64,000 nucleotides of DNA from Candidatus Magasanikiibacteriota bacterium (lineage in GTDB: Bacteria; Patescibacteriota; Patescibacteriia; Magasanikbacterales; UBA922), in assembly GCA_043809645.1 (NCBI GenBank), contig JBDROX010000036.1, positions 1,713-65,712 of the forward strand, given 5' to 3'. A program made the position numbers and the translations under genes. Every line of letters starts with the position of its first letter. Position 1 is the stretch's first letter. The notes under the pieces were generated by a model that made no database searches, was not told where the DNA came from, and saw only the letters and a program-made list of their open reading frames with translations. Below, piece by piece: positions 1 to 15,938 of this stretch.

Positions 1-1472
1 AGCAGTTCTGTGAGTGTATCCTGAAAGAGTTTATGATATTCCTTTTCAGTAAGTTTGTCTCTGTGGAAATCAAAATCTACGCATATGGTGATTGTATTCC
101 CTTCAACTTTTAGTAACTTCGACATTTTCAGGATGAATGTTACGGAAGTACTCTGCTTCTCTATAGTCGATAGGAATTCTTGCCAGATGTTCTGAACTTC
201 TTCTAGAGTAAATTTGGCATCTTTTGTAACAATTTGTTTTACCTTTTCCTTAATACCGCCTCTTCTTTTCAGAGGTTCCGGTGTTTCTTCTTTTGGTTCC
301 TTAGTTGTCTCAATATTTGCTAGAGGTTGGTTTGAGCCGTTATCATCAGAGTCATCGTGTGCTTTCGTTTCTTTTGAGACAGATTGTTGACACCAACCAA
401 CGACAGCGATCTCCAGAGGAAGGGAATCTATTGGAGATGACTTTATTTCTGTTCTTCTCTTCATGACAAGATCAATAAGTCTAGAGATTTCATGAGCGTT
501 GTGATTTTGTAATAGACCCTCTAGCTCTTTTTGGACATCCTTACTAATATCAGCGCCTATCCCACCTCCAACTTCAGATCCGAATGACATGATAAGCATG
601 AATCTGAGCAGTTCAATAACTTCATATGAGAAATCAAACATCTGTACGCCAGCTTCTCCAAGTCCTGATAGGAGTTCTATGGCATCCTTTGCTTTTTTCT
701 CTAGTAGGAAAGTAACGAACTGAACAGTTTGTTCAGCGTTGGTGTTTGGAAGGACAATAGAAGCCTTCTCTGCAGTGATATGTTTCTCTCCACTGGCAAG
801 GAGCTGATCGAGGAGGCTAATAGCATCACGGGCGCAGCCATCACTTTTGTTTATAATTCTATCAATGACATCTTGATCTACTTTTACAGACTGATCCTTT
901 ATAATTTTCTTGAGGTGCTCATTCATATCATCATACGGAATTCGCTTGAAAGAGAAGACCTGACAGCGTGAAACAATGGTATCTAGTAACTTGTGTTTTT
1001 CAGTAGTAGCCAATACAAAGACCACATATGAAGGTGGCTCCTCCAGAATTTTGAGAAGTGCATTGAATGCACTCACAGAGAGCATGTGCACCTCGTCTAT
1101 GATGAAGATTTTCTTTTTGGACTTGGTTGGCTGGAACTGAGCATTCTCGATAATATTCTCACGAACATTGTCTACGCCGGTATGACTCGCAGCATCTATC
1201 TCTATCACATCTATTGATCGTGTCTCAGTAATTTCATTGCATGAGCCGCAGTTGTTACATGGTTCAGCCTTCCCATCCTCACGATTTGTGCAGTTCAGTG
1301 CCTTGGCAATGAGTCTGGCACTTGTAGTCTTTCCAACCCCTCGTGGACCACAAAAAAGGTATGCATGTGTTACCTTATCCTTGGAAATTTGATTCGTAAG
1401 TGTTTGTTTGATGTGTTCTTGTCCAACAATATCCTCAAAAGTCTGTGGTCTATAGGTGTGATACAGTGCCAT
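1..1472 (-). CDS. dnaX: DNA polymerase III subunit gamma/tau, 3' part of gene (runs off window start)
   Basis: My own translation of the minus strand from the ATG at 1470-1472 gives MALYHTYRPQTFEDIVGQEHI...GPRGVGKTTSARLIAKALNC...IFIIDEVHMLS (Walker A/B, clamp-loader family); not in the ORF track because it is open to the window edge. Confidence 0.85.
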   Translation of the reverse strand, partial: MALYHTYRPQTFEDIVGQEHIKQTLTNQISKDKVTHAYLFCGPRGVGKTTSARLIAKALNCTNREDGKAEPCNNCGSCNEITETRSIDVIEIDAASHTGVDNVRENIIENAQFQPTKSKKKIFIIDEVHMLSVSAFNALLKILEEPPSYVVFVLATTEKHKLLDTIVSRCQVFSFKRIPYDDMNEHLKKIIKDQSVKVDQDVIDRIINKSDGCARDAISLLDQLLASGEKHITAEKASIVLPNTNAEQTVQFVTFLLEKKAKDAIELLSGLGEAGVQMFDFSYEVIELLRFMLIMSFGSEVGGGIGADISKDVQKELEGLLQNHNAHEISRLIDLVMKRRTEIKSSPIDSLPLEIAVVGWCQQSVSKETKAHDDSDDNGSNQPLANIETTKEPKEETPEPLKRRGGIKEKVKQIVTKDAKFTLEEVQNIWQEFLSTIEKQSTSVTFILKMSKLLKVEGNTITICVDFDFHRDKLTEKEYHKLFQDTLTEL

Positions 1473-1563
1473 AGGAAGATTTTCAGTCGAAAAATTTATT
1501 ATGATTTGAACCAATTATAGCGTACATTTTCCCTAAAGTAAATTGACTTTCCTGGTGCTACTA

Positions 1564-1692: not shown

Positions 1693-1956
1693 ATGCCTAG
1701 AAAAGCAAATCCAGCGCTCATGAAGCCCCTAAAGCTCTCTGCAGAGCTTGAGGAAGTAGTTGGAAAAGGACCATTGCCACGTGGACAAGTTGTCAAGAAA
1801 CTTTGGGAGTACATCAAGAAATATGATCTCCAGAACCCAAAGAACAAGCGAAATATTCTCGCTGATGAGAAGCTAAAAGTTCTCTTTGGTGGAAAGAAAG
1901 AAGTCACTATGTTCGAGATGACGAAGCTCGTCTCTCCACATATGACCAATGAATAG
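1693..1956 (+). CDS. SWIB/MDM2 domain protein
   Basis: 87 aa; PLKLSAELEEVVGKGPLPRGQVVKKLWEYIKKYDLQNP...EMTKLV is typical of the bacterial SWIB domain. Confidence 0.7.
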   Translation: MPRKANPALMKPLKLSAELEEVVGKGPLPRGQVVKKLWEYIKKYDLQNPKNKRNILADEKLKVLFGGKKEVTMFEMTKLVSPHMTNE

Positions 1957-2003
1957 AAAAGAACAGAAATAAAAAAAACACCTCCATTTGGGATGTGTTT
2001 TTT

Positions 2004-3611
2004 TTATTTCACGCGAATAATGATATATCCATCATTTTCAAAAACTATTTCAAAGTCATTGGGCCTATGGGAGACAAAGTTTCTGAAATTTTCTGAAAGT
2101 GGACTAGTCTTCGAACTGAAGATATAGTCTGATTCAAAAATATTGTGCACAGCATGCTGTACAGCGTTAATCTGGTGCATTGTGCTTAGATCCATGCAAG
2201 CCTCTCTCTGGGGGCAATATAGGCCTCTGAGGATCAGATTATACCAGGTCCAGTAGAGATGCTGGTCATAGTTGTACATGAATACAGGATCAAATCCAGC
2301 AATATATTGAATGTCACTATTTTCAAAGAATAGGGGAGCAAAGGAACTCCAGTTCGTAAGGAAAACAGTCTTTCCTTTTGATACAATACTACTCAGCTCA
2401 TCAGTGGCCTCATAAAACTCCTTTTTCTTTTCTAGATCACCAACGGCAATGTTGTTATAAAATATGACAAGGTTTTTACTACAGAAAAAAGTAAGAATCG
2501 CCAAAATGAGAAGAGTAGGTATATTTTTTCTTCTCTTGCTTTGATTATTGATAACCTTAAATACATCATATTTTGATGCCTGCACAAACACATATACAGA
2601 AAGAAGAAATGTCATTGGTACCCAATATTCCACCATACGAGGAACTAACACTGTGGCTACAAGTGATAAAGAGCAGAACGTGAGTAAAACAAATGAATCC
2701 CCATCCAATTTTTTTTCTGAATGAAGGTAAAGAGCCAGAGAGGAGAAAAAAAGGAAAAGAGTAACTGTAATAATATTTCCAAGCATGATAGTAGAGAAGC
2801 TCATGGTTGCCAGTTCAGATCCACTGGGGAGAGTTATGCCGGCAAGTTTCAAATAGAAGATCTCGAATGTATGGACGAGGATAACGTGAGTATATCCAAT
2901 AGTTTGTGGATGCAGAATGAGTCCAAGGAGAACGCCACCAAATACTGATATGATGGGTCTCAGATCAACTATCTTCTTTTCATAATATATCGATATGCTA
3001 AAGAGAAGTGAAAGAAGGAGAAATGGCGCAATGAAGTTGTACATGAGGATGTAGAGCACCGAGAAGAAGAATGCCCAAACATACCTTTTCTTTGAAAGCA
3101 AGTAGAATCCTGCAATCATGAGAGCTATAGATATGACAAATGGTCTACCCAGAAGAATACGGAATGAGAAGATTGTGGATGATAGAAAAAAAAGAAGAGT
3201 TAAAAGAAAATTATGCTCCTTTAGTTTTTTCCACGCTATGAGATAGAAGAAAAGGAAAATAAGAGTAGCCTGAAGTGCACTTACAAGCTTGAGTGAGTTA
3301 ACTGGCCCTAGAAATCTATTTACTTGTCCTGTGATGAAGTGGTGGAGTACATACGGGTCTGCTGGTAGAGTGCTAAAGAAGTGGAATGCAATCCATGGTT
3401 TCACTACAGAAAACTTTCCACTCTCATACACTATTTGGCTATGTTTCGCATGATAGTATGCGTCCGAGCCATAGAGGCCCTCGTGAGCAAACTGTGCATA
3501 CCCAAAGATAGTGCAAAAAAAGAAAAACACCAATAGTGCTCGTACCAATGGTGATTTAAAGACTTTTTTAATTTTGACAGGCAGAAATATAGTGAAGAAT
3601 TGCCTAATCAT
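2004..3611 (-). CDS. large polytopic integral membrane protein (about 12 TM helices plus C-terminal soluble domain); GT-C-like or VirB6-like candidate
   Basis: 535 aa, many hydrophobic helices, first loop motif SDAYYHAK, about 150-aa C-terminal soluble domain; overlaps the next gene by 4 nt (operon). Confidence 0.4.
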   Translation of the reverse strand: MIRQFFTIFLPVKIKKVFKSPLVRALLVFFFFCTIFGYAQFAHEGLYGSDAYYHAKHSQIVYESGKFSVVKPWIAFHFFSTLPADPYVLHHFITGQVNRFLGPVNSLKLVSALQATLIFLFFYLIAWKKLKEHNFLLTLLFFLSSTIFSFRILLGRPFVISIALMIAGFYLLSKKRYVWAFFFSVLYILMYNFIAPFLLLSLLFSISIYYEKKIVDLRPIISVFGGVLLGLILHPQTIGYTHVILVHTFEIFYLKLAGITLPSGSELATMSFSTIMLGNIITVTLFLFFSSLALYLHSEKKLDGDSFVLLTFCSLSLVATVLVPRMVEYWVPMTFLLSVYVFVQASKYDVFKVINNQSKRRKNIPTLLILAILTFFCSKNLVIFYNNIAVGDLEKKKEFYEATDELSSIVSKGKTVFLTNWSSFAPLFFENSDIQYIAGFDPVFMYNYDQHLYWTWYNLILRGLYCPQREACMDLSTMHQINAVQHAVHNIFESDYIFSSKTSPLSENFRNFVSHRPNDFEIVFENDGYIIIRVK

Positions 3612-4291
3612 GCTTTGTGGATAATATTTTCTACAGCACCCCAGCTGCTCTCGCCAGTTTCTGGAATGAGAATAACAACATCATCTCCAGCATTTCCTTT
3701 ATAAAATGTTGCAGATGCTGTCAGGATCTTGTATGGTCTTCCTCCAAAAATAACAGACCAATTTCCGTTCTCATCAGAGACGAGCTCTCCTGTTACACGT
3801 TTTCTGTTTACCTGTTGGATTTGTTTATAGATAAATGAACCTCTATTTGTAATAGTGAGCTTCATGATGTCTCCCTCAACCAGCTTTGATTTACTTGCGT
3901 AGTTCGGTGGAACACTGTATTCCTCTCCATCTTGACCGATCATCTTCTCTCCGGTGAAGACGCCTTCGACAATACGTTCACCACTATCAAAAACTGAGGT
4001 TTCGGGTTGGTCACCAACCATCTTTCTCACTTTCTCACCACCTACAATTCGAAGGAGAGAATCTAGTTGATCCTTGATGCACAGAATACTTTTCTTCACT
4101 TCATCGAGGTCTACATCTTTTTCACTTACTTTTTCTTCTATTGATTCTCGTGTGTTGCCAAGGGTCAGAGGGTTCAGATTTAGACTGTCTTCGTCTAATT
4201 CTGAATTTTGAGTTGGTGGAAAAGTTGGAATATGTTTTCCTTTGAATAGGTCTTTTGCTTTGTCGTCAAGTACGCTATTGATATTGTCCAT
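3608..4291 (-). CDS. hypothetical soluble protein, acidic N-terminus, in operon with the VirB4-like ATPase
   Basis: 227 aa ORF, no TM helix, translationally coupled to the downstream membrane protein gene. Confidence 0.4.
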   Translation of the reverse strand: MDNINSVLDDKAKDLFKGKHIPTFPPTQNSELDEDSLNLNPLTLGNTRESIEEKVSEKDVDLDEVKKSILCIKDQLDSLLRIVGGEKVRKMVGDQPETSVFDSGERIVEGVFTGEKMIGQDGEEYSVPPNYASKSKLVEGDIMKLTITNRGSFIYKQIQQVNRKRVTGELVSDENGNWSVIFGGRPYKILTASATFYKGNAGDDVVILIPETGESSWGAVENIIHKA

Positions 4292-4331
4292 ACACTTTTC
4301 TGTTTATATTTGTTATTTGTTTGTATATTCC

Positions 4332-6899
4332 CTAAAGACTTGCTTCTATAGAGTCAGTATCTGCTTGTCCTTCTGACTCACCAAGCTTTGTCCTTTCCAT
4401 AATCTCTGACTCTACGATCATTTGGTCACGCCCATACTTGAGTCTGGAGAGCTGCTTAATGGCATTTCCAAGTTCTTTATTTCCTTGCATTGGTGGAAAT
4501 GTCTGCATGAGGAATGGTTTTGAAGCAGTATTATCAATTAGGAGTTTTGTATACCAGGAGAACATTGGGGCATTGAGTAGGTCGTACGCACCAAATGTTG
4601 GTGCAAACTCCTTTGCAAGAACCTCTGAATCATCTGGTCCAATGCGGGCAGAGAACATAGTACCAGCATTACCGAGGACTGCGTCACGGATACCAGACCT
4701 TCCTTTGTCGTCTGTCAGCTGACCCATGTATTGATGGGCAATGATAAGGTCTAGCTTATATTTTCGAGCCTCAGATAGGATAGTTGAGATAGAGTCAGTA
4801 ACAAAGTTCTGGAACTCATCTATATAGAGATAAAAATCTTTTCTATCTTCTTCTTCCTGATCAGCCCTAGCAAGGGCCGCCATCTGAAGCTTGGAAACAA
4901 TAATGAGTCCGAGTAGTTTGGCATTTACCTCACCTGTTTTTCCTTTTGCAAGATTCACGAGAAGTATCTTTTGATTATCCATAATATCACGGAAATCAAA
5001 ACCTGACTTTTGCTGACCCATGATGTTTCTCATCATTTCATTCTCTACGAAACGACCAACCTTGGAAATAAGGTAGCCAAGCATTTCTGATTTATGAAAG
5101 TCACTTGTTTTTGCCATTTCCTTCTCCCAGAATGCTCGGACGACTGGGTCTTTTAATTTTTTCAAATAGACTTTTACATAGTCATCATCTGTGAACATGC
5201 GTGGAATATCAATGATAGTCCCTGGGTTATCCAGGTCGGCCATGAGTGTGAGCATCACATTACGCATATTGTGCTCGAACATTGGTCCGATCATTTCCGG
5301 TGGAAAGAGTTTGTAGAAAATTGAGATCATCTCCTGAACCGCGAAGTCTTTCTGATCCTCACTCTTCGCCTCTAACATATTGAGACCAATAGGACGTTCT
5401 GTATCAGACGGATCGAAGATCACAACATCGTCAGCACGTTCTTTTGGTATATGACTGAGGATATACTCAACGAGGTCTCCGTGTGGGTCGATAACACAAA
5501 CTCCTTTTCCTTCATGAATATCCTGGATAGCCATTCTAGATACGAAGACAGACTTACCACCACCAGACTTACCAATAATGTACATGTGTCGCCTCCTGTC
5601 TCCTTCCTTCATGAAAACATTTGTTTTTGAACCCCTATAATCAACATATCCGAGGAGGAGGCCTTCTTTTGGAAGGTTTGATGGGGGTGGGGCTTTTCTT
5701 CCTGTGAGCCATTTGACGTTTGGTGCTTCTGTAGAATGGAGCGGAAGGTGCCAGAATGAGGCCATTTCATCTGTTGTCAGTAGGATCTTTCTCTTCTCAT
5801 CAAAACTCCTGTAGATGAAGTGGCGGATAAGACCAGTTTGCTTTTTTGGAACAATGGCTTGAAAACTATTTCCATATCGATACAGATTGTACTGCCCGAA
5901 GGAGCCTATGAGGTCATCTAGATGGAGCCTGGCAGCCTCTTCCTGATCAGCAACACTCAGAAGTCTAATAGTCACATCCATGCCACCACGACTCAGCTTT
6001 TCCTCAAATCCCTTTAGCATTTCTTCTTCCATACCCGAGAGCTGGTATGGTGTGCCATCTTTTCTTTTCTCAGGATTTTGGAGCGTTTCAGTGAATTCTT
6101 TTGATCCTTTTTGGAAAGCTCTCCCAAATGCACTTCTCTTTGCAATTTGCTCGAACTTCTCACCTTTTTTTATATCACGAACCATCGTTACACCCTGCTT
6201 TCTCCAAGTCTTCACTGCACTTCTGATCACGAACTGTATTGCCATGGAGCTGTTATTGTCCTGATATTTTGATAAGACATTTAGAATGGAAGCTAATGGG
6301 TCTGATTCCATTATTTTGTATGATTTGAAAGGGAAGACACCTTTTTGCTGGGTAGTAAGGTAGGCGCCAACAATTTTACTTTTTTCAGAAAAAATATTGT
6401 AATCCTGAATCTGGTCGATCTGTGCGTGTGGATGCTGTGCATTGATCTGCTGTTCCATGAACGATCGCATCTTATTCGGGATGTCTATGTAGAAATAGAT
6501 CAGACCACCTGTAGCAACTATTTCAAAAGACATGTGGTCATTTCTACCACCAAACCATCTTGAAAATCCTTTTTGTGCTCGGAGGGCTGCTACTGCAGAG
6601 AACAGCGTCTCTGTCATTCCTATTTCCTCCTTTATCTGCTCGAGTCTGTCATCTGTGCTTGCCTGTCCACCGGCTCCTTCTGACTTTCTCTCCTTTGGAA
6701 CGAGGATTTGGAGTACAGACCTGCCAAAGGCTTTGTTTGCTTTTCCACGGTTCTGAATGAGTGTTCGAACCAGGAGGAGTATCGCAAAAACAGTAAAGAC
6801 AATGATGAGAACAATGACAATCCAAAAAAGAAGATTCCCAATTCCAGAGGAATTTAAAAGGTTTGTTTGATTGAAACCAACAAAGAATTGGAAAAACAT
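4332..6899 (-). CDS. VirB4/TrbE/TraC-family type IV secretion-type P-loop ATPase with N-terminal TM helix (VirB3-VirB4-fusion-like layout)
   Basis: 855 aa; N-terminal TM; Walker A YIIGKSGGGKS near residue 445; IDPHGD; Walker B LYIDEFQNF; ARKYKLDLIIAHQYMGQL (the RK...Q motif of T4SS ATPases, AAA_10 / CagE_TrbE_VirB type). Confidence 0.55.
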   Translation of the reverse strand: MFFQFFVGFNQTNLLNSSGIGNLLFWIVIVLIIVFTVFAILLLVRTLIQNRGKANKAFGRSVLQILVPKERKSEGAGGQASTDDRLEQIKEEIGMTETLFSAVAALRAQKGFSRWFGGRNDHMSFEIVATGGLIYFYIDIPNKMRSFMEQQINAQHPHAQIDQIQDYNIFSEKSKIVGAYLTTQQKGVFPFKSYKIMESDPLASILNVLSKYQDNNSSMAIQFVIRSAVKTWRKQGVTMVRDIKKGEKFEQIAKRSAFGRAFQKGSKEFTETLQNPEKRKDGTPYQLSGMEEEMLKGFEEKLSRGGMDVTIRLLSVADQEEAARLHLDDLIGSFGQYNLYRYGNSFQAIVPKKQTGLIRHFIYRSFDEKRKILLTTDEMASFWHLPLHSTEAPNVKWLTGRKAPPPSNLPKEGLLLGYVDYRGSKTNVFMKEGDRRRHMYIIGKSGGGKSVFVSRMAIQDIHEGKGVCVIDPHGDLVEYILSHIPKERADDVVIFDPSDTERPIGLNMLEAKSEDQKDFAVQEMISIFYKLFPPEMIGPMFEHNMRNVMLTLMADLDNPGTIIDIPRMFTDDDYVKVYLKKLKDPVVRAFWEKEMAKTSDFHKSEMLGYLISKVGRFVENEMMRNIMGQQKSGFDFRDIMDNQKILLVNLAKGKTGEVNAKLLGLIIVSKLQMAALARADQEEEDRKDFYLYIDEFQNFVTDSISTILSEARKYKLDLIIAHQYMGQLTDDKGRSGIRDAVLGNAGTMFSARIGPDDSEVLAKEFAPTFGAYDLLNAPMFSWYTKLLIDNTASKPFLMQTFPPMQGNKELGNAIKQLSRLKYGRDQMIVESEIMERTKLGESEGQADTDSIEASL

Positions 6900-6914
6900 A
6901 TGTAAAAAAATCAG

Positions 6915-7502
6915 TTACTTCTTTGGGAAGTACTGATTTTTGAGTGACATAATCTTGTCTGCACGTATCTTCGCTTCTTGTTCTAAGAAAAATATATTAA
7001 TACCTGGCAAAATTTTCAGCCATTCCAGGAGGAGTTTAAAAATACTTTTTACCTTACCCTTCGCAGAACTCAAAATGGCTCGAATTTTGAAAGCCGTTTC
7101 TTCACCTTTTATCTTGAATTCTTGTTGCTGCACTGGTGTGAGTTCCTTGAATGCATCAGCGAGACCATCTTCCATAATTTTCTCAACTTTCATTGTGATC
7201 TCATCTCTAACCTGAGGAACAGCTGTAAGTTTTTTCTTTTTTGTCCGTCTCAATTTCTTTCTCAGAGAATCAATTCCTTGGTCTATAGTTTCAACTTTTT
7301 GTACAGAAGGATCTATTTCTGGGGAGACTTCTGGAACTCTTTGTACTTCTGGTCGTGAAATTTCTGGTATTGTTTCTGAAAGTGGCAGGGTAGTTTCTGA
7401 TATTGGAGATATTAGAGGAGGAACAGCTTCTACTGGGGCTGCCTGAGATGTGTTAAAGTCAAGAACCGGAATCTCTTTTGGGTTTGGGTTTGTTGTAGCC
7501 AT
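6915..7502 (-). CDS. hypothetical protein, Pro/Glu-rich N-terminus, coiled-coil, C-terminal hydrophobic segment
   Basis: 195 aa ORF immediately upstream of the ATPase gene (16-nt gap). Confidence 0.4.
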   Translation of the reverse strand: MATTNPNPKEIPVLDFNTSQAAPVEAVPPLISPISETTLPLSETIPEISRPEVQRVPEVSPEIDPSVQKVETIDQGIDSLRKKLRRTKKKKLTAVPQVRDEITMKVEKIMEDGLADAFKELTPVQQQEFKIKGEETAFKIRAILSSAKGKVKSIFKLLLEWLKILPGINIFFLEQEAKIRADKIMSLKNQYFPKK

Positions 7503-7693
7503 AAGTCACGATGTACAAATCACAAGACACATATCAAAATTAATACAGCATATTGGAGGCATATATTTGATATGTGGAGTGTATTACGTGTTATATAGAA
7601 TAGTATACCAGAAGCAAAGAAAATTGACTATAAGTTTAGTAGAAGTAGTGAAAAATTAAACAGCATTGTGAAACGTACACATGCAATATAATG

Positions 7694-8548
7694 TTACTTT
7701 TCAAAAAAGATGGGAATTTCCAGTGCATCATCATATTTTGGAAGGTCAGATGGATTATCTTTCTGTAGAATAAGTGTTCCACGGTCGTAGAGTGCTGGCA
7801 CCTCGAAATGAAGTTCCCCCTTGAACGGAACGAATTCTTCTGTCATCCATTCATCCTGCGCAGTAATATACCCTTCTGCAATGATTTTACCATCCCAGTC
7901 TGTGAGAATGACAGGTGCATCACCCTCGAAATACCATACTCCTCTGGCTTGTCCAGTGATCTGAAGAGGGCTCGAAATCCCAGTGTTTGGTCGTGGAGAA
8001 TCAATTCGTATACTATCAGCTTTTTCAAGCTCATTTCCAATATTTTCTGTAAATGTTTCCCTACCATGACTACAGCTTCTCGGATAGCTTTCCATGATTG
8101 GATTTTCAGCCTCAACGCAGTCAGAGAATGTTAAAATAGTGGAAGAATCATCTGAGTCAATACTACTTTGAATCAAGTTTTTTGAGAGAAAAAAGAAAAC
8201 AACAATTCCCAGAATAAATAGGCCGAGAAGTACTAGCATCATTTTTTTCTTCAAGTCAATCTCTTTTTTTGTCATCGACCTGAGGTCTTTCTCATGTTTT
8301 TTCTCCAGAGATGCTCCCAAAGCAACGCCGATCGGTAATCCAAGAGCTGGACCTAGGGCAATATTACCAATTGCAATGCCAAAAGGTATGCCAATTGCAA
8401 TGCCAATTGCAATGCCAAGGCTCATGTAGTGACCTTTTGGATGTTTTCCTGTCCTCTTAAATTCCTCCTGTTTTATTTTGAATGCTGGTATAGATACTAT
8501 TCCAATAATAATTATCATTGCGAGAATGAGTAACTGCGCTGTATACAT
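7694..8548 (-). CDS. membrane-anchored protein with Gly-rich TM region and C-terminal Gmad2-like immunoglobulin-like domain
   Basis: 284 aa; GIAIGIAIGIPFGIAIGN repeats; CVEAENPIMESYPRSC motif; SPRPNTGISSPLQITGQARGVWYFEGDAPVILTDWDGKIIAEG...WMTEEFVPFKG matches the Gmad2 Ig-like fold. Confidence 0.55.
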   Translation of the reverse strand: MYTAQLLILAMIIIIGIVSIPAFKIKQEEFKRTGKHPKGHYMSLGIAIGIAIGIPFGIAIGNIALGPALGLPIGVALGASLEKKHEKDLRSMTKKEIDLKKKMMLVLLGLFILGIVVFFFLSKNLIQSSIDSDDSSTILTFSDCVEAENPIMESYPRSCSHGRETFTENIGNELEKADSIRIDSPRPNTGISSPLQITGQARGVWYFEGDAPVILTDWDGKIIAEGYITAQDEWMTEEFVPFKGELHFEVPALYDRGTLILQKDNPSDLPKYDDALEIPIFFEK

Positions 8549-8557
8549 ACTGTTTAC

Positions 8558-9037
8558 TTATTGGATAATAATATTAGTGCTACCTGGAAGTCGCTCTCTA
8601 ATAATCTTGAGATCCTGCTCTGAATATGGATTGCCAGAGAGGCGAAGCCATTTCAATTTTTTTAGATTTCCGATCTCATGTGGAAGTCCTGTAATTCCGT
8701 TGTTTGAGAGGTCGAGGAGTTCGAGATCTTCTAGCTGTCCAACTTCTGCCGGGACGCCTGTCATAATATTGTCACTCAGATCAAGAACTTTTAGGTTTTT
8801 AAGCTTATTAATTTCTGCTGGGATGGCACCGCCAATTTCATTTCCAGAAAGGTCAAGCTCTTCAAGCTTTTTATTCTTGAAAACATCGGCAGGGATTTCT
8901 TTTAGTTCCTGATTGCTGAGATCAAGTTTGAGGCTATTTGCAATTTCGACATCTCCGTCTGTTTCAGCAGTATCATTCAGACTACAGCCAGTGAATAGGA
9001 CGGTGATAGCGATGAGAGGGAGGAGGTATTTTTTCAT
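8558..9037 (-). CDS. leucine-rich-repeat lipoprotein
   Basis: Start chosen at MKKYLLPLIAITVLFTGCS (lipobox LFTGC); at least five LxxLxLSxNxIxGxxP LRR units. Confidence 0.65.
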   Translation of the reverse strand: MKKYLLPLIAITVLFTGCSLNDTAETDGDVEIANSLKLDLSNQELKEIPADVFKNKKLEELDLSGNEIGGAIPAEINKLKNLKVLDLSDNIMTGVPAEVGQLEDLELLDLSNNGITGLPHEIGNLKKLKWLRLSGNPYSEQDLKIIRERLPGSTNIIIQ

Positions 9038-9047
9038 ATATTTTTTA

Positions 9048-9251
9048 TTACGATTTTGGTACGATGCGAGCGAAATACATGCCAAGGAGTACAAGTACCG
9101 TACCAATATACACAACATAATTTGACACTGTATATGATTTTGTTATTATCGAGCCAAGACGGTAAAGAAGGAGAGCAAGACCAATAATAAAAAGGGCAAT
9201 ACCAACTTTTTTAAATTTTACGGGTACGAAACCTGTCGGCTCATTTGGCAT
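9048..9251 (-). CDS. small two-TM membrane protein (VirB2/VirB3-like size class; function unknown)
   Basis: 67 aa, two hydrophobic helices. Confidence 0.35.
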   Translation of the reverse strand: MPNEPTGFVPVKFKKVGIALFIIGLALLLYRLGSIITKSYTVSNYVVYIGTVLVLLGMYFARIVPKS

Positions 9252-9262
9252 ATGAGAAGGTG

Positions 9263-9493
9263 TTACGAATCTTTTTTAAGCAATAAATAGACTCCATAGG
9301 GGAAGAGGGTGAATATGCCAAGAACACCAATAAGACCAACAAAGCCAAGGATAATATTTATCACATGACTAAATGTCGCTACCTCCGGCTCTCTTCCAGT
9401 GATAACATTTGAAATAGAGAATATAACAAGGGATCCAATAATAAGGATGAATGGAAGAGAGATAAAGAGTGGTCCTTTAGTTGTTTTTTTCAT
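9263..9493 (-). CDS. small two-TM membrane protein (VirB2/VirB3-like size class; function unknown)
   Basis: 76 aa, two hydrophobic helices, stop adjacent to the DUF2164 gene. Confidence 0.4.
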   Translation of the reverse strand: MKKTTKGPLFISLPFILIIGSLVIFSISNVITGREPEVATFSHVINIILGFVGLIGVLGIFTLFPYGVYLLLKKDS

Positions 9494-9748
9494 CTATTTT
9501 TGTTTCAAAAGATCTAAATCAATTTCAATATCATCGGAGTGCTGGCGGAGTGCGGCAGATGCATTATCTATACCTTCATTATAGATGTGCTCTCCAATAT
9601 TGTCTAGGAAAAAATCTAGAATTTCTTCAGCAGCGATCACACCGATCTGCTCATCTCGCTCATTATCAAAAAAACTAATAATTTTTTCTATAGAAGTTTC
9701 TCTTTTATCTTTTGGAAGAAAATCCCATTTTCGTTTGATTTCGTCCAT
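9494..9748 (-). CDS. DUF2164-family small protein
   Basis: 84 aa; FFDNERDEQIGVIAAEEILDFFLDNIGEHIYNEGIDNA resembles the DUF2164 consensus. Confidence 0.45.
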   Translation of the reverse strand: MDEIKRKWDFLPKDKRETSIEKIISFFDNERDEQIGVIAAEEILDFFLDNIGEHIYNEGIDNASAALRQHSDDIEIDLDLLKQK

Positions 9749-9764
9749 ATGTGTCGGAAGTTTT

Positions 9765-10823
9765 TTATTGGATAATCACAGGAATCTCGAGTGCATCGTC
9801 ATTTTCTCGCAGGTCAGATGGGTTGTCTTTCTGGAGTATCAGTGTTCCTTTGTCACTATAGCTTTCTTGTTTTTCAAACGTGAGTGTTCCTTTGAATGGG
9901 ACGAAGTCCTCTGTCATCCATTCTCCTTGTGCCACACCAAACCCTTCTGCAATAATGAGTCCGTCCCAGTTTGTAAGAATGATAGGGAAGTCTCCTTCAA
10001 AGAACCATGTGCCACGGGCTTCTCCTGTGATTTGGAGTGGGCTAGAGATGGTTGCGTTTGGGCGAGGGGAGTAGACACGGATGATATTCGTCAAAGCTCA
10101 TGATTCATAGTCAAAAAAGATACTTTCATTGCGTCCCATCTTTAGCAAAACTGAATGTTCAAATTTTTCTACTGTATCTACTACTTCATTATTGGACATC
10201 AGTCCTCTTACAATTTGTTCGTCCTGGATTTGCCAATCTGAAGGATATTGAAAAAAAATACCGAAATTTTCATTTGTATATGAAATCATCTTATCGCTCG
10301 TAGAAGTAATTTTTACCACAGACGAGCACTGACCATCCAGGCATTCGCATGGATACTTCCTATACTTATCACACTCAGAACAATCGCAATCACTTCCCAG
10401 CTTGCAACTAGATGAATAGCTGGCACTCTCTTCTGGGCCTGGAGAGTGGTTCCACATCGGGCAGACGACTACACATCCATTATTTCTGCAGGATGCACTG
10501 TACGGGCAGTTCGATTGGATCGCATATTCCATTGGTACACTACAATCCGAAGATACTTCGCAAGTACTTCCTACAGGTTTTTGAATACTTTCTGTATAGG
10601 CTCTATCTCCATGACGACATTGCCGAGGGTAGCTCTCCATGATCGGGTTTCCAGCGTTCACACATTCTTCGAAGGTGTTTACTACTCCAGAAGGCACCTG
10701 AGGAGCAGAATTATCTCTCCCTTCTCGGACTTTTGGCATGATGAGGAAGAATATAATAAAGACTATGAGAATTCCAGGGAGTATGACAACAATAAAGTTT
10801 TTTATTGTTGGTTTGGTATTCAT
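9765..10823 (-). pseudogene. paralog of the 7694-8548 Gmad2 protein, interrupted by one in-frame TGA (ORFs 10098-10823 and 9765-10094 are in the same frame)
   Basis: N-terminal ORF has TM plus NPIMESYPRQC plus a Cys-rich region; after the stop the frame continues ...DYES*ALTNIIRVYSPRPNATISSPLQITGEARGTWFFEGDFPIIL (Gmad2 domain) collinear with the intact paralog. Confidence 0.5.
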
Positions 10824-10828
10824 AGATT

Positions 10829-11029
10829 TTATTTTTTGCTAGTCCTCTCCACGATTAACAGAAAGTCTACTTTTGCCGTGGCTCCCATGAGTTGGAATGT
10901 TGGTTTTACATTTGGAATGACAGAAAGAACTTCTCCATCGAGATTATTGAGGAACTGCTCCAAATAATCTTGCATATTATCACTCTTGACATCTATACGA
11001 TGCACTTTATATTTCTTTTTTTCTTCCAT
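10829..11029 (-). CDS. hypothetical small protein (first gene of the minus-strand array)
   Basis: 66 aa ORF, 5 nt upstream of the next gene. Confidence 0.3.
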   Translation of the reverse strand: MEEKKKYKVHRIDVKSDNMQDYLEQFLNNLDGEVLSVIPNVKPTFQLMGATAKVDFLLIVERTSKK

Positions 11030-11323: not shown

Positions 11324-11554
11324 CTACAATTTTAATTCTTCAATACTTTTATCTAAAGCCTCTTCAATCTCACCCAATGGATCATCAGGTTTTGTGTAAT
11401 CAGGAGGATATACTTTTTCAATGATTTCCTCCAAATCTTTTATAGGATCAGCAGGTTTAGTGTCCTCAACTAATTCATCAATGAAATCCTTCTTTTTTTC
11501 TTTAATTTCTGCATCGGGTGTTTGGGATTTTATCTCTCCCTTCTGTTTTTTCAT
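11324..11554 (-). CDS. hypothetical small acidic protein
   Basis: 76 aa, Glu/Asp/Lys-rich, 4-nt overlap with the cysS start. Confidence 0.3.
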   Translation of the reverse strand: MKKQKGEIKSQTPDAEIKEKKKDFIDELVEDTKPADPIKDLEEIIEKVYPPDYTKPDDPLGEIEEALDKSIEELKL

Positions 11555-12918
11555 AGAACTATATTTTTTATTATTTGCTTTCCTTGATGGTCTTCAATAC
11601 TATACCCAAGCTTTTCAAGCTTATCACGCAATCTATCAGACTCCTCAAAATTCTTCTCATCTCTTGCCTTCTGTCTCTGATCCAGAAGTCCCTGCACTTC
11701 TTCAGGAATAGCAACGTCTCCTTCATGAGAAATGAGGCCGAGGCCGAGGATTTTGTCGAACTTGGTGATCATCTCTTGATTTATGGCTTTCTCCTTCAGT
11801 CCTTTTGACAGAGCAGCAAGTGCCTCTGCAGTATTCAGATTATCTGATAGTGCATCGAAGAATGCCTTCTCCACAAGTGGATCTCCTGGCGCATCTTCTG
11901 GAAGGTCTTTTATTTTTCTTCTGAGATTCTTCAGCCCTTGCTCAGCAGCCTCTATAGCTTCCCAAGAGAACGTGAGCTGCTTACGATAGTGCACCTGCAG
12001 GAGGAAGAATCGATAGGCTAGGGGAGTGAGCCCTTTTTCTTCGAGAGTTGCTAGTGTGAGGAAATTATTTTCTGACTTTGACATTTTATCCTTTTCTGTC
12101 AGGAGGAACTCACCATGCATCCAAACATTCACCCATGGTTTTTTCCCAGTTGCAGCCTCGCTCTGCGCGATTTCATTACTGTGATGCACTGGAATATGGT
12201 CGATGCCACCACAGTGAATATCGAACTGCTCGCCAAGATATTTCGTAGCCATAGCAGAGCACTCTATATGCCAGCCTGGAAATCCTTTTTTCCCAAAAGC
12301 ATCCCATTCCATTTGGCGCGCTCTACCATCCTTAGAAAATTTCCAAAGAGCAAAGTCATGTGCATTTTTCTTTTCACCAATACCCACTCGAGCACCTGCC
12401 TCCAGATGTTGCTTGTCGAGCTGTGCGAGCGCACCATAGTCGTCTATAGTTGTCGTATCAAAATAGATACCGTCAGATGTTTCATAGGTGTGTCCGCCAT
12501 CAATAAGTTTTTGTACGAGATTAATCTGTTCCTGAATATTGTCTGTAGCTTTGCACCAGATGGTTGGCTCTAGAATATTGAGCGCTGCAATGTCATTTTT
12601 AAAGGCCTCTGTGTAGAACTCTGCAATCTCCCATGCTGTCTTTCCTTCACGCTTCGCACCCTTCTCCATTTTATCTTCTCCACTGTCAGCATCATCTGTC
12701 AGATGACCAACATCTGTGATATTCATCACATGATTGACGTCATATCCTTTGTATTTGAGCATTCGACGCAGAATATCTTCGAACACATATGTCCTCAGAT
12801 TTCCCAGATGGGCATAGTGATACACAGTTGGGCCGCAGGTATAGAGGCCGACCTGTTTTCCCTGAATAGGTACAAATTCTTCTTTCTCCCTTGTTCTGGT
12901 ATTGTAAAAATTGAGCAT
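11551..12918 (-). CDS. cysS: cysteinyl-tRNA synthetase
   Basis: 455 aa; CGPTVYHYAHLGN (HIGH region), KMSKS, CysRS-specific zinc-binding cysteines. Confidence 0.9.
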   Translation of the reverse strand: MLNFYNTRTREKEEFVPIQGKQVGLYTCGPTVYHYAHLGNLRTYVFEDILRRMLKYKGYDVNHVMNITDVGHLTDDADSGEDKMEKGAKREGKTAWEIAEFYTEAFKNDIAALNILEPTIWCKATDNIQEQINLVQKLIDGGHTYETSDGIYFDTTTIDDYGALAQLDKQHLEAGARVGIGEKKNAHDFALWKFSKDGRARQMEWDAFGKKGFPGWHIECSAMATKYLGEQFDIHCGGIDHIPVHHSNEIAQSEAATGKKPWVNVWMHGEFLLTEKDKMSKSENNFLTLATLEEKGLTPLAYRFFLLQVHYRKQLTFSWEAIEAAEQGLKNLRRKIKDLPEDAPGDPLVEKAFFDALSDNLNTAEALAALSKGLKEKAINQEMITKFDKILGLGLISHEGDVAIPEEVQGLLDQRQKARDEKNFEESDRLRDKLEKLGYSIEDHQGKQIIKNIVL

Positions 12919-13069
12919 AAAAATTTTTAAAATGATTGGGTTTATTATAGTGTGAATAGGGGAGAGTGTAAAGCATACGGATAATATGGTATAATCGAAT
13001 TAATCAAAATTCTTTGGGGGTTATAAAATATTTTGAATTTATAATTTGGAATTTTGAATTTATTTTATT

Positions 13070-14200
13070 ATGTCATTATTTTCTCACAATCAAGACGCAT
13101 ATCTCGGTATAGACATTGGTGCACATGGAATGAAGTGTGTCGAATTGCACAAGACCAAGGGTCGTCCACAGCTCTGGACGTATGGTATTGCATCAGAACC
13201 ATTGGATATTCATCCCCCTGTGCCTGTTGAGAAGACCCCAGAGCAGCTCATGAAAGAAACAAAGTCTGATGTCCTGGGAGAAGGGCAACAAACTGGTGTG
13301 GCAGTGCCACAGCCGGATGATCCACGTGTAAAGAAGTATGCAGCCATGCTCAAGAACCTTATAGAACAATCAAAGGTTACAACCAGGCAGGCTACAGCAA
13401 GCCTTCCGATTTCAGAAGTTTTTCATACTATGCTTACACTTCCTGTGGTTGAAAAGAAAGATGTGGAAGGAATCATCCAGGCAGAGATTCAGAAGTTTCT
13501 ACATAGGCCTGTGGATGAGATGCAGATCATGCACCAGATGGTGCCAACGGAAAATAAGAATCACATGAGAGTGCTCGTCACTGCTGCCACGAAGAGTATT
13601 ATCTCTTTTTATACAGCCATTTTTCAAAAGGCTGGACTAGAGCTTCGAGAACTCGAGACAGAAGCATTTGCACTAGAGAGATCACTTGTTGGTAGGGACA
13701 CATCAAATGTTTTTATTGTAGACATTGGATCAGAACGCACAAATTTTTTTGTGATTTCAGAAAGTCTCCCAATTATTCATAGAAGTATCAATATTGGAGG
13801 GGACAGACTGACAGCGCATCTCCAAGAAATTCTTGGAGTTGACGCCATAATAGTGGATGAACTCAAGCGAGACATGTCTCGGCTTGGTTCCAGTGATATT
13901 ACATCAGATATCATGGAGCGTATTATCAACCCGATTACAAAAGAAGTAAAGTACAGTCTTGATGTATTTCTAAGACAGAACGGGGAATCAAAGCGTCCTG
14001 AGAAAATTGTTCTCACAGGAGGGTCAAGTGTTATTCCTTATATTGCAAAACGACTCACTGATGAGTTCCAAATAAAGGCGTTTGTCGGAGATCCGTGGGC
14101 ACGTGTTGTACACCAGCAGGGACTCAAGCCTGTCCTAGATGCAATTGGACCAAGGATGGCAGTTAGCATTGGTTTAGCGCTACGCAATATTGTAGAATAG
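13070..14200 (+). CDS. pilM: type IV pilus assembly ATPase-like protein PilM (actin-like)
   Basis: 376 aa; LGIDIGAHGMKCV, VDIGSERTNFFV, INIGGDRLT actin-fold motifs. Confidence 0.75.
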   Translation: MSLFSHNQDAYLGIDIGAHGMKCVELHKTKGRPQLWTYGIASEPLDIHPPVPVEKTPEQLMKETKSDVLGEGQQTGVAVPQPDDPRVKKYAAMLKNLIEQSKVTTRQATASLPISEVFHTMLTLPVVEKKDVEGIIQAEIQKFLHRPVDEMQIMHQMVPTENKNHMRVLVTAATKSIISFYTAIFQKAGLELRELETEAFALERSLVGRDTSNVFIVDIGSERTNFFVISESLPIIHRSINIGGDRLTAHLQEILGVDAIIVDELKRDMSRLGSSDITSDIMERIINPITKEVKYSLDVFLRQNGESKRPEKIVLTGGSSVIPYIAKRLTDEFQIKAFVGDPWARVVHQQGLKPVLDAIGPRMAVSIGLALRNIVE

Positions 14201-14262
14201 TCACAATATTGAATATTTATTTATATTCATGATATACTTTCAGAAGTTAATAAATTATACAT

Positions 14263-14646
14263 ATGGCAAAAAATAAAATACAAGTCCATATCATCGAAGA
14301 TGACACGTTTCTAGTGAATATTTATAAAACAAAGTTTGAGATGGAAGGATTTAGTGTTTCAGTTTCAGAAAATGGAGAGGCAGGTCTTGCTGCTGTAAAG
14401 AAAAAACAGCCAGATATCATTCTTTTGGATATTCTCATGCCAAAGATGGATGGATTCACTGTACTAAAGAAACTAAAGGCAGATAAGAATTTGAAAGACG
14501 TTCCCGTAATACTCCTCACAAATCTTGGGCAGAAGAATGATGTAGAGAAAGGGATTGATTTGGGAGCGGTTGACTACCTCATTAAAGCACATTTTAAGCC
14601 ATCGGAAACTGTGGCAAAAGTCAAAAAAGTTTTAAAACTGAAATAA
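14263..14646 (+). CDS. stand-alone response regulator receiver domain (CheY-like)
   Basis: 127 aa; phospho-acceptor context DIILLDILMP, conserved K near the C-terminus. Confidence 0.8.
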   Translation: MAKNKIQVHIIEDDTFLVNIYKTKFEMEGFSVSVSENGEAGLAAVKKKQPDIILLDILMPKMDGFTVLKKLKADKNLKDVPVILLTNLGQKNDVEKGIDLGAVDYLIKAHFKPSETVAKVKKVLKLK

Positions 14647-14649
14647 TCT

Positions 14650-15105
14650 ATGTTCAAGCTTACTATGAGAAATACAAAGAGTGGATTTACACTCATCGAG
14701 CTCCTTGTTGTTATTGCAATCATTGGATTGCTCTCAACCCTTGCGGTAGTTGCTCTTGGTTCTGCCAGACAGAAAGCCAGAGACTCACTCAGGCTCTCTG
14801 ACCTAAAGGAAATGCAAGTGGCACTCGAGTTGCATTATACTGACAAGAGTTCATACCCTGTACAAGCTGAAGTAGTCACACTAGGAAGTGGAAATTTTGC
14901 ATGTTTAAATATCGATGGTTTTAGTGCTTCTGGTTGTGCCAATCCATACAAAGGAAATATTCCTCAAGATCCAGGTGAGTCAGTCTATCAATATATTTCA
15001 AGTGATGGTTCTTCCTATGCAATATCTGCAATCCTAGAGGGTGAGATCGGCGGCTTGAATGATGGAACAGTGCAGGCATCTCCATCAGGAATATCAAATC
15101 AATAG
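14650..15105 (+). CDS. type IV pilin / pseudopilin (N-methylation prepilin motif)
   Basis: KSG|FTLIELLVVIAIIGLL class III leader peptide. Confidence 0.8.
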   Translation: MFKLTMRNTKSGFTLIELLVVIAIIGLLSTLAVVALGSARQKARDSLRLSDLKEMQVALELHYTDKSSYPVQAEVVTLGSGNFACLNIDGFSASGCANPYKGNIPQDPGESVYQYISSDGSSYAISAILEGEIGGLNDGTVQASPSGISNQ

Positions 15106-15170
15106 CTGTAGTTGAATAGGTGAAACACTCTCCCCTGGAGGGTGTTTTTTTTGATGTAGCATGATATACT

Positions 15171-15938
15171 GTGAACACTATGGAAATACTATTTTCATCT
15201 TTTTTGTTTCTCATCGGGCTCATTCTTGGCAGTTTTTTGAATGCCTGGATCTATAGTCTAAGAGAAGAAATCAGTATCCGGGGCAGGAGATCTATGTGCC
15301 CAGAGTGCAAGAAAGATATTGCTTGGTATGATAATATTCCGGTGCTCAGCTTTTTTCTGTTGCGTGGAACATGTCGACCATGTAAGAATAGTATTTCTTG
15401 GCAATACCCAATCGTAGAGCTCTTCATGGGAATTGTATTTGTCTTTTTAGGCAGCTTTCATCAGCTAGACGTCTTACTCATCGCCAAGGATGGATTTATC
15501 ATCTTCTTCCTTACACTCATATTTGTATACGATCTGCGATATCAGCAGATTCCAGATATTGCTACTATTGCTCCTGCCACTGCAGTATTCATAGTTACAC
15601 TCCTCATGTCACCACTCAGCTGGGCGAGTATGTTGATTGGAGTCGGTGTAGGGGCAAGCTTTTTTCTTCTCCAATTCTTCATTTCAAAAGGGCGTTGGAT
15701 TGGGGCAGGAGACATTAGTCTTGGGGCATTCATGGGTGTGATTCTCGGTTGGCCACTCACTTTTTTTGCTCTCGTCCTCGCGTATATTGGAGGGGCGGTC
15801 CTTAGTGTGGTATTGATTGCACTCAAGAAAACTACAAGAAAAAGTAAAGTACCATTTGGAACATATCTAGCAATAGCAACATGTATCTGTATGTTTTGGG
15901 GTGCGGAAATTGTGAGTTGGTATATTGGACTGATGTAA
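15171..15938 (+). CDS. pilD: prepilin peptidase (A24 family)
   Basis: 255 aa; N-terminal CPEC...CRPC zinc motif and polytopic peptidase domain. Confidence 0.8.
   Translation: MNTMEILFSSFLFLIGLILGSFLNAWIYSLREEISIRGRRSMCPECKKDIAWYDNIPVLSFFLLRGTCRPCKNSISWQYPIVELFMGIVFVFLGSFHQLDVLLIAKDGFIIFFLTLIFVYDLRYQQIPDIATIAPATAVFIVTLLMSPLSWASMLIGVGVGASFFLLQFFISKGRWIGAGDISLGAFMGVILGWPLTFFALVLAYIGGAVLSVVLIALKKTTRKSKVPFGTYLAIATCICMFWGAEIVSWYIGLM

Follow-up and report, generated by a model that had tools for sequence, protein, structure and literature searches.

The window analysed here is a 64,000-nucleotide (nt) stretch of a Candidatus Magasanikbacteria contig (JBDROX010000036.1, positions 1,713 to 65,712), and the subject of this work is a minus-strand array of genes located at 2004-11029. 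At the centre of the array is an ATPase of 855 amino acids (aa), immediately flanked by the genes for two smaller proteins, cc195 and p227, and beyond these by genes for membrane, surface and small proteins (Table 1). An open reading frame (ORF) map places every gene of the array on the minus strand, exactly where the original prediction had put it, with tiny gaps or overlaps: the genes of the core are -4, 40 and 15 nt apart, those of the upstream set 0-16 nt. That prediction interpreted the array as a single secretion or cell-contact apparatus with a VirB4/TrbE-like ATPase. It is probable instead that three layers make up the array, namely a conserved core, an upstream insertion and a downstream addition, and that the core is a motor module of the type IV coupling protein (T4CP) type. 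Elsewhere in the window, a crude ORF map shows same-strand runs of 5-11 genes and ~92% coding sequence. Because long, tight, co-directional runs are thus usual here, the arrangement of the array carries little information by itself.

Table 1. Features of the array and of its immediate surroundings (window coordinates)
Feature	Coordinates	Strand	Remarks
dnaX (DNA polymerase III gamma/tau), 5' part	1..1514	-	Runs off window start; translation MALYHTYRPQTFEDIVGQEH...GPRGVGKTT; downstream anchor of the conserved block
SWIB-domain protein	1693..1956	+	Convergent with the array; homologues carry Pfam SWIB
Inverted repeat	1966..2010	.	20 nt with a 5-nt loop and flanks rich in A/T; arms 95% complementary; lies between SWIB and mem535, which converge
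mem535, 535-aa polytopic membrane protein	2004..3611	-	Start overlaps p227 stop by 4 nt
p227 (227 aa), conserved cytoplasmic partner	3608..4291	-	Linked downstream of the ATPase
855-aa membrane-anchored DUF8128 + T4CP-type (VirD4/TrwB/HerA-like) P-loop ATPase	4332..6899	-	Core of the finding
ATPase: RecA-like domain with all-helical insertion, residues ~414-840	4380..5660	-	Motifs invariant in family
ATPase: DUF8128 N-terminal alpha/beta domain, residues ~60-400	5700..6722	-	Pfam PF26449; confidently modelled
ATPase: N-terminal transmembrane helix, residues 26-44	6768..6824	-	Hydropathy 3.39; AlphaFold2 helix at 20-58
cc195 (195 aa), conserved cytoplasmic partner	6915..7502	-	No Pfam or PDB relative
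Gmad2 membrane protein, 284 aa, C-terminal Ig-like domain	7694..8548	-	Gmad2 (PF10648) 50.2 bits, cut-off 25.7
Leucine-rich repeat (LRR) lipoprotein	8558..9037 (longest ORF to 9118)	-	LRR_8 71.3 bits, cut-off 27
tm67, 67-aa miniprotein with two transmembrane segments	9048..9251	-	No family match
tm76, 76-aa miniprotein with two transmembrane segments	9263..9493	-	Transmembrane scan
DUF2164 protein, no transmembrane segment	9494..9748	-	Pfam 70.5 bits, cut-off 27
Second Gmad2 gene: transmembrane segment, Cys-rich region, Gmad2 domain	9765..10823	-	Split by in-frame TGA
p66, 66-aa protein	10829..11029	-	No family match
cysS (cysteinyl-tRNA synthetase)	11551..12918	-	Upstream anchor of the conserved block

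Domain architecture of the ATPase

The ATPase combines a membrane anchor with a RecA-like domain in which the Walker A (GKSGGGKS, residues 443-450), Walker B (689-697) and ARK...Q (711-723) motifs are intact; both the N-terminal transmembrane (TM) helix and a Walker A motif near residue 445 had been read correctly from the sequence alone. Residues G443, G446, G448, K449, D694, E695, R712, K713 and Q723 are invariant in alignments of 28-51 sequences extending down to 32% identity. Basic residues follow the TM helix, which by the positive-inside rule would leave everything beyond the helix in the cytoplasm. An AlphaFold2 model with a mean predicted local distance difference test score of 83 contains the TM helix, an alpha/beta N-terminal domain (~60-400), the RecA-like domain and a helical insertion at ~514-641. 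The N-terminal domain corresponds to DUF8128 (PF26449), which is precomputed in Pfam on every homologue of the ATPase and which has no sequence relative in the PDB.

Some metagenomic relatives (P0258, P0262, P0265 and similar proteins) are 1,200-2,000 aa long and have C-terminal extensions lacking any Pfam domain, and another group of relatives comprises only the ATPase half, fused to N-terminal TPR repeats. Gene-fusion ("Rosetta stone") hints were looked for among the 1,200-2,000-aa relatives, where the extra regions have no Pfam domain or consist only of TPR repeats.

Assignment to the coupling protein branch

Several curated Pfam thresholds are exceeded by T4CP profiles that cover the nucleotide-binding and all-alpha domains of the ATPase. 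These are PF02534 (T4SS-DNA_transf; 47.3 bits, cut-off 20.1, residues 426-763), PF10412 (TrwB_AAD_bind; 39.8 bits, cut-off 20.5, residues 430-773) and PF12696 (TraG-D_C; 25.1 bits, cut-off 22); DUF87 matches as well. Among NCBIfam models, SXT_TraD, the VirD4-like CD1115 family and TrbC match, all of them below their full-length cut-offs, and the ATPase is thus a divergent member of the T4CPs. Its only sequence relatives in the PDB, with either a single sequence or a 51-sequence profile as query, are TrwB and DotL (E 9e-8 and 1e-4, respectively, with the profile).

The original assignment was right as to the superfamily of type IV secretion ATPases, but not as to the VirB4/TrbE-like identity. 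The Pfam families CagE_TrbE_VirB and AAA_10 do not match the ATPase at E<=0.1, and the VirB4_plasma model (26 bits, cut-off 590) and TraC-F-type models reach only residues 426-473, i.e., the P-loop. Unlike VirB4, TrbE and TrwK, the protein has no profile match past Walker A and no adjacent VirB3, VirB6 or VirB8; profile searches of the array and the remainder of the window detected no genes like these three, no VirB4 and no other type IV secretion system (T4SS) genes. In a Foldseek search with the model, full-length TrwK/VirB4 ranks first (E 3e-14, ~920 columns), with TrwB a close second (E 2.6e-13; template modelling score for the target 0.6). However, the scores to VirB4 (0.27-0.33) do not exceed those obtained with the C-terminal domain alone, and the comparison of modelled structures would not by itself decide between VirB4 and T4CP.

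Homologues encoded on plasmids provide a more direct control. A tblastn search against plasmids returned 505 records with 23-28% identity, the best of which covers both domains (residues ~97-850), from hosts that include Bacillus, Streptomyces, Staphylococcus, Clostridium, haloarchaea and Sulfolobus. In a Bacillus subtilis plasmid (NZ_CP032854.1) and in Bacillus methanolicus pBM69, a Gram-positive conjugation operon opens with the homologue, after which come, in order, genes for a relaxase-like replication-relaxation protein, a conjugal transfer protein, a TcpE-like protein, an ATP-binding protein of ~850 aa, a large membrane protein and a cell-wall hydrolase. Going by the gene order of ICEBs1, Tn916 and pCW3, we take the first slot of this operon to be that of the coupling protein (ConQ/TcpA), and the ~850-aa ATPase after the TcpE-like gene to be the VirB4 equivalent (ConE/TcpF). 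When the Patescibacteria profile is aligned to the first plasmid gene with hhalign, the probability is 100% (E 7e-43, 27% identity) over 665 columns that include the N-terminal domain, DUF8128 being retained in the Bacillus protein (columns 89-400). Against the VirB4-type ATPase of the same operon, the probability is 3.3%, over 36 columns at Walker A. Since the profile aligns with the gene in the coupling slot but not with the operon's VirB4-type ATPase, the ATPase of the window is of the coupling type.

A VirB4 identity was rejected on the profile searches and the in-operon control. A variant of it would make the ATPase a highly divergent VirB4 (an N-terminal domain plus a RecA-like C-terminal domain) that energizes the assembly of a T4SS with its remaining components encoded at other loci. 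It is very unlikely, given that the VirB4 models of Pfam and NCBIfam miss the protein or touch only Walker A, that hhalign prefers the paralogue in the T4CP position so clearly, and that ~80% of Patescibacteria genomes already have a separate VirB4 (PMC12102498). Sequence comparison instead places the ATPase in the coupling protein branch of the FtsK/HerA superfamily, within a DUF8128-bearing clade.

Within that branch, the protein has both typical and unusual properties. As in VirD4, TrwB, TraG and TraD, the Pfam matches extend over residues 426-773, the anchor is N-terminal and an all-helical insertion lies between Walker A and Walker B. T4CPs usually have two TM helices, whereas there is only one here, and the ~340-aa DUF8128 domain is an addition in front of the ATPase domain. 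Typical T4CP genes are also linked to relaxase or T4SS genes on mobile elements; this one is a chromosomal core gene without such linkage, and no relaxase or T4SS gene adjoins it in the window or in the gene calls of seven related loci (L001-L003 and L084-L087). An architectural counterpart is the DUF87-annotated Bacillus plasmid ATPase, to which it is homologous over the full length, including DUF8128 and the ATPase motifs. The context differs, as the plasmid gene precedes the replication-relaxation, TcpE-like, VirB4-type, VirB6-type and hydrolase genes and the window gene lies between cc195 and p227, genes that lack homologues in the conjugation loci of the plasmids.

In haloarchaeal plasmids (e.g., Halomontanus NZ_CP119798.1, L169 8887-13132), the DUF8128-like N-terminal part and the ATPase part are encoded by two neighbouring genes, and a second large gene annotated with a "TraM recognition domain" is located upstream.

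A conserved chromosomal block in Patescibacteria

Relatives of the ATPase were detected in at least 549 species representatives, and the best 80 of these (59-75% identity) were taken with 10-kb flanks and searched with the window genes by tblastn. The gene for cc195 is present in 78 of the 80 loci, and lies directly upstream on the same strand in all 74 that have room for it. That for p227 is found in 58 loci; of the 73 loci with sufficient room, 53 have it directly downstream in the same orientation. SWIB (52/80) is convergent and immediately follows p227, and cysS (49/80) is upstream on the same strand. The dnaX gene that opens the window also has counterparts: it comes after the module in L001-L003, L084, L086 and L087, and right after the ATPase in the L066-L083 clade. 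Two intervals vary in length. Between cysS and cc195 there are 39-7,322 nt (median 413), and in the window 4,048 nt that hold the Gmad2, LRR, small-TM, DUF2164, p66 and p76 genes. Between p227 and SWIB, 34 of 48 loci have 264 nt or less, compared to 1,651 nt, holding mem535, in the window. From these counts, the gap lengths and the position of dnaX at the window start, the ancestral block is cysS, cc195, ATPase, p227, SWIB and dnaX, with two insertion-prone gaps.

The linkage of p227 and the ATPase extends to three other candidate phyla. In loci from Doudna-, Jackson- and Kerfeldbacteria, a gene of the p227 family lies downstream of the ATPase (hidden Markov model (HMM) E 1e-61 to 1e-66), with dnaX near. 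The Kuenen- and Kerfeldbacteria loci retain cc195, whose HMM matches 82 of 87 loci overall. The trio keeps a fixed chromosomal position, has been passed on vertically and occurs in Patescibacteria well beyond Magasanikbacteria, as follows for the ATPase from its 59-79% identity across at least 549 species representatives. It is likewise observed that the ATPase is linked to a predicted OB-fold protein (p227, see below) instead of a relaxase.

Dozens of the GTDB representative metagenome-assembled genomes that contain a Patescibacteria-type locus (L005-L083) are titled "uncultured Gammaproteobacteria bacterium", which looks like a systematic mislabel.

This distribution also bears on a possible role in anti-phage defence, as a HerA-type system resembling MADS or Dpt. 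In a PADLOC scan, the ATPase matches mad8 and HerA only, and the nine other array proteins scanned have no match. A fixed position between housekeeping genes in hundreds of species is the opposite of the patchy, island-borne occurrence of defence genes, and the module lacks any nuclease, Sir2 or methylase partner. Such a system was rejected on its distribution, and the chance that the module is one is close to negligible.

The genes beyond the core have a very different distribution. Among the 80 loci, mem535 occurs in four, at the same position between p227 and SWIB, tm76 in one, ~2.3 kb upstream of the ATPase, and DUF2164 in one, 9.6 kb away; both Gmad2 genes, the LRR gene, tm67, p66 and p76 were detected in none by tblastn. 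A reciprocal comparison, starting from the closest metagenomic relatives of the Gmad2 domain, gives a similar picture. A scan with the whole protein found nothing, and a query with the domain alignment gave 80 loci. Context of 8 kb or more is available for 34 of these; the ATPase and p227 are present in one of the 34, an LRR homologue is present in one of the 80, and cc195, tm67, tm76, DUF2164, p66 and mem535 are present in none. Of the partnerships originally proposed within the array, those with cc195 and p227 therefore stand (74/74 and 53/73), and those with the Gmad2, LRR, DUF2164 and small-TM genes do not (0-1/80).

These counts weigh against the idea that all of the roughly twelve genes form one minimal, previously undescribed T4SS or host-contact machine, with a VirB4-like ATPase, VirB2-, VirB3- and VirB6-like parts and Gmad2 and LRR adhesins. 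The tight co-directional packing would suit it, but such packing is ordinary in this genome. The proposed partners are missing beside the ATPase in 76-80 of the 80 related genomes (the Gmad2, LRR, DUF2164 and small-TM genes in 79-80), and the ATPase is missing beside 33 of 34 Gmad2 relatives. Profiles for VirB2, VirB3, VirB6 and VirB8 all remain below threshold, and the sequence profiles and the plasmid operon control put the ATPase among the T4CPs. The actual Patescibacteria T4SS, comprising VirB4, TrsD, PrgI, VirB6 and pilins, are encoded at other loci (PMC12102498). With no VirB4 signature, no flanking genes related to a T4SS and next to no co-localization with partners other than cc195 and p227, the single apparatus is essentially contradicted on both counts, and it is highly improbable.

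The partner proteins cc195 and p227

The protein cc195 has a variable N-terminus rich in Pro and Glu and a conserved helical C-terminal domain (~95-187) with the motif WLKxLPGxNxFFLEQEAKI. Its profile retrieved only noise from the PDB, in the form of p300 low-complexity regions. In p227, a short N-terminal helix is followed by a variable low-complexity linker, a helix at 62-83 and a C-terminal domain (~100-227) that is predicted to be a tandem OB-fold of the S1/cold-shock-like type. There is a weak match between the p227 profile and DotY (E 0.02). DotY is a component of the Legionella DotL complex (with DotM, DotN, IcmSW, LvgA and DotZ), which is alike in concept, pairing a T4CP with dedicated cytoplasmic adaptors.

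Lineage-specific genes around the core

The upstream layer consists of ~4 kb specific to this genome in the gap between cysS and cc195, and encodes mostly envelope proteins. The Gmad2, DUF2164 and LRR family assignments made from the sequence hold up, with Pfam scores above the gathering cut-offs (Table 1). The intact Gmad2 protein has three TM segments in a hydropathy scan. Its paralogue is interrupted, as had been seen, by a single in-frame TGA at 10098-10100 (...FFDYES*ALTNIIRVYSPRPN...), and both halves are well conserved relative to the intact protein; the two Ig-like domains are 70% identical and the gene copies form a repeat at the DNA level. Recent pseudogenization, a fault in the assembly or read-through of the codon could each explain the TGA. 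For the LRR protein, a start at 9037 is likely from the sequence, which there reads MKKYLL...FTGC and resembles a lipobox-bearing signal. The two miniproteins had been assigned to the VirB2/VirB3 class by size, which the profile searches do not support: the only match, for tm76, is to the mycoplasma pilin-like family Mbov_0395 of integrative and conjugative elements, and is sub-threshold (E 0.018, 14.7 bits vs a cut-off of 40).

The downstream layer is mem535, a sub-clade-specific addition between p227 and SWIB. A hydropathy scan gives at least nine TM segments, instead of the roughly twelve first estimated, followed by a soluble C-terminal domain of ~150 aa. The proposed resemblance to VirB6 is not borne out: profile searches do not place mem535 in the VirB6/TrbL family, and there is no match in Pfam, NCBIfam or the PDB, even at E 10 with a three-sequence profile. 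Its relatives share an invariant D50-x-Y-Y-H-A motif after the first TM segment, and conserved Cys and aromatic residues in the soluble domain. GT-C glycosyltransferases carry an acidic motif in their first loop, and the D50 motif is, by analogy, reminiscent of these enzymes.

The most fitting view of the Gmad2, LRR and small-TM genes is that they encode independent, fast-turnover envelope proteins and have landed in an insertion-prone gap. These proteins may play a part in host contact. Signs of mobile elements at the insertions were looked for, and there is no tRNA within 22 kb, no flanking direct repeat and no shift in GC content.

Genomic setting

The inverted repeat between the convergent mem535 and SWIB genes probably serves as a terminator in both directions, closing the minus-strand unit. 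Counts of promoter-like (39 vs 29.4 ± 5.6 in shuffled sequence) and terminator-like sites (11 vs 8.3 ± 3.1) are within about two standard deviations of expectation and so carry no information; an Rfam search of 1-16 kb gave no match. The other genes of the window are housekeeping genes, including those for LigA, GatA, FtsW, MurG, MurE, ClpB, BipA, GluRS, FtsQ and others.

A type IV pilus gene set at 13070-15938 on the plus strand diverges from cysS and comprises genes for a PilM-like protein, a response regulator, a prepilin with the sequence GFTLIELLVV and a prepilin peptidase-like membrane protein, names that were read off the sequences and not obtained by profile searches. Homologues of this set are located upstream of the ATPase module in 18-23 of the 80 related loci. 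Both GC skew and AT skew change sign at ~12000-14000, at the divergent cysS/pilM-like pair where gene orientation switches. This could be due to coding-strand composition alone or to a nearby replication origin; no dnaA was seen in the examined parts of the window. Further away, a 455-aa protein (20317-21684, plus strand) has two LOG/Lysine_decarbox (SLOG) units and a weak match to DprA (DNA_processg_A), and a 470-aa ORF (27610-29022, minus strand) has no Pfam match at E<=0.001.

Relation to known secretion systems

The T4SS of Patescibacteria have been described as consisting of VirB4, TrsD, PrgI/VirB3, VirB6 and VirB2-like pilins, and as located near dnaA or, in class ABY1, near comF, recG and radA (Quinonero-Coronel et al. 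2025, PMC12102498). The VirB4 proteins of most Patescibacteria are separate and monophyletic (PMC12102498). The T4SS of Southlakia lacks a recognizable coupling protein or relaxase (Wang et al. 2023, PMC10633639). The array belongs to the same phylum as these systems, but none of their genes is present in the window.

It is already known that unlinked T4CP homologues are abundant in Patescibacteria. In all, 5,713 VirD4-like homologues occur in 2,918 of 3,035 genomes (96%), 148 of them near virB4, and exaptation of the unlinked proteins has been proposed as possible (PMC12102498). The ATPase of the window would be expected among these homologues if the T4CP profile used there captures the DUF8128 clade. 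Neither that study nor PMC10633639 describes the module, its OB-fold partner or its plasmid counterpart; a literature search found no paper on DUF8128, and no search was aimed at the partner proteins. What is added here to the unlinked ATPase is an architecture (a single TM helix, DUF8128 and a T4CP-type ATPase), a plasmid ancestor type and two conserved cytoplasmic partners, one of which, p227, has a predicted fold of a nucleic-acid-binding type.

Possible functions of the module

The relationship to coupling proteins points to a most likely function. The ATPase, derived from a conjugative T4CP, would form a hexameric ring on the cytoplasmic face of the membrane, held there by its one TM helix, and would spend ATP on threading a polymer. 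In place of a relaxosome, p227 may be the adaptor that binds the substrate, which is probably single-stranded nucleic acid, and cc195 may be a scaffold or regulator. The motor could feed a VirB4-type T4SS encoded elsewhere in Patescibacteria genomes, or another channel. The products of the upstream and downstream layers would be independent envelope proteins and not motor subunits. A further reading goes beyond this model. The trio would be a motor for nucleic-acid translocation that Patescibacteria share, that needs no relaxase and that was recruited from the conjugative coupling protein of a monoderm; it would pull in host-derived single-stranded RNA or DNA or export nucleic acid via a T4SS or other channel. 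This further reading is put forward very tentatively, and is on present evidence distinctly unlikely.

Several observations count against such a motor, or against the separation into layers on which it builds. The conserved module contains no channel component, and contacts among its three proteins are putative. Association of the trio is not universal: cc195 is undetectable by HMM in the Doudna and Jackson loci, whose upstream genes are unrelated, and p227 is missing beside the ATPase in one Magasanikbacteria clade, where dnaX follows directly, and in one Kuenenbacteria locus. A t4cp homologue of Southlakia epibionticum, which may or may not belong to the DUF8128 clade, has been reported as non-essential (PMC12102498). 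Finally, the inserted genes are tightly spaced with the core and could be co-transcribed with it in this genome.

The main mechanistic rival of the translocation motor dispenses with secretion altogether. It may be that the trio is a T4SS-independent chromosomal DNA motor of the FtsK/HerA type that works at the membrane in segregation, repair or end-processing and in which p227 is the subunit that binds DNA. A motor of this kind would account for the stable linkage to dnaX, but the synteny with dnaX and cysS may equally be a frozen gene order without functional meaning. Moreover, the best sequence relatives of the ATPase are conjugative coupling proteins and not FtsK or HerA, and neither a NurA-like nuclease nor another HerA partner is linked to it. 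A chromosomal DNA motor is a possible function, if an unlikely one.

Implications

In compact genomes such as this one, conserved modules and lineage-specific insertions stand side by side in tight co-directional arrays, and the adjacency of genes in a single genome is thus weak evidence for a machine. The conserved trio offers three defined genes to aim at, by biochemistry or by genetics in tractable Saccharibacteria. One cultured Patescibacterium is reported to take up host RNA by a route that is unknown (2026 preprint 10.64898/2026.06.21.733656). Patescibacteria are unable to make nucleotides and, if the translocation model is true, the motor would be a missing component of nucleotide acquisition in these auxotrophs.

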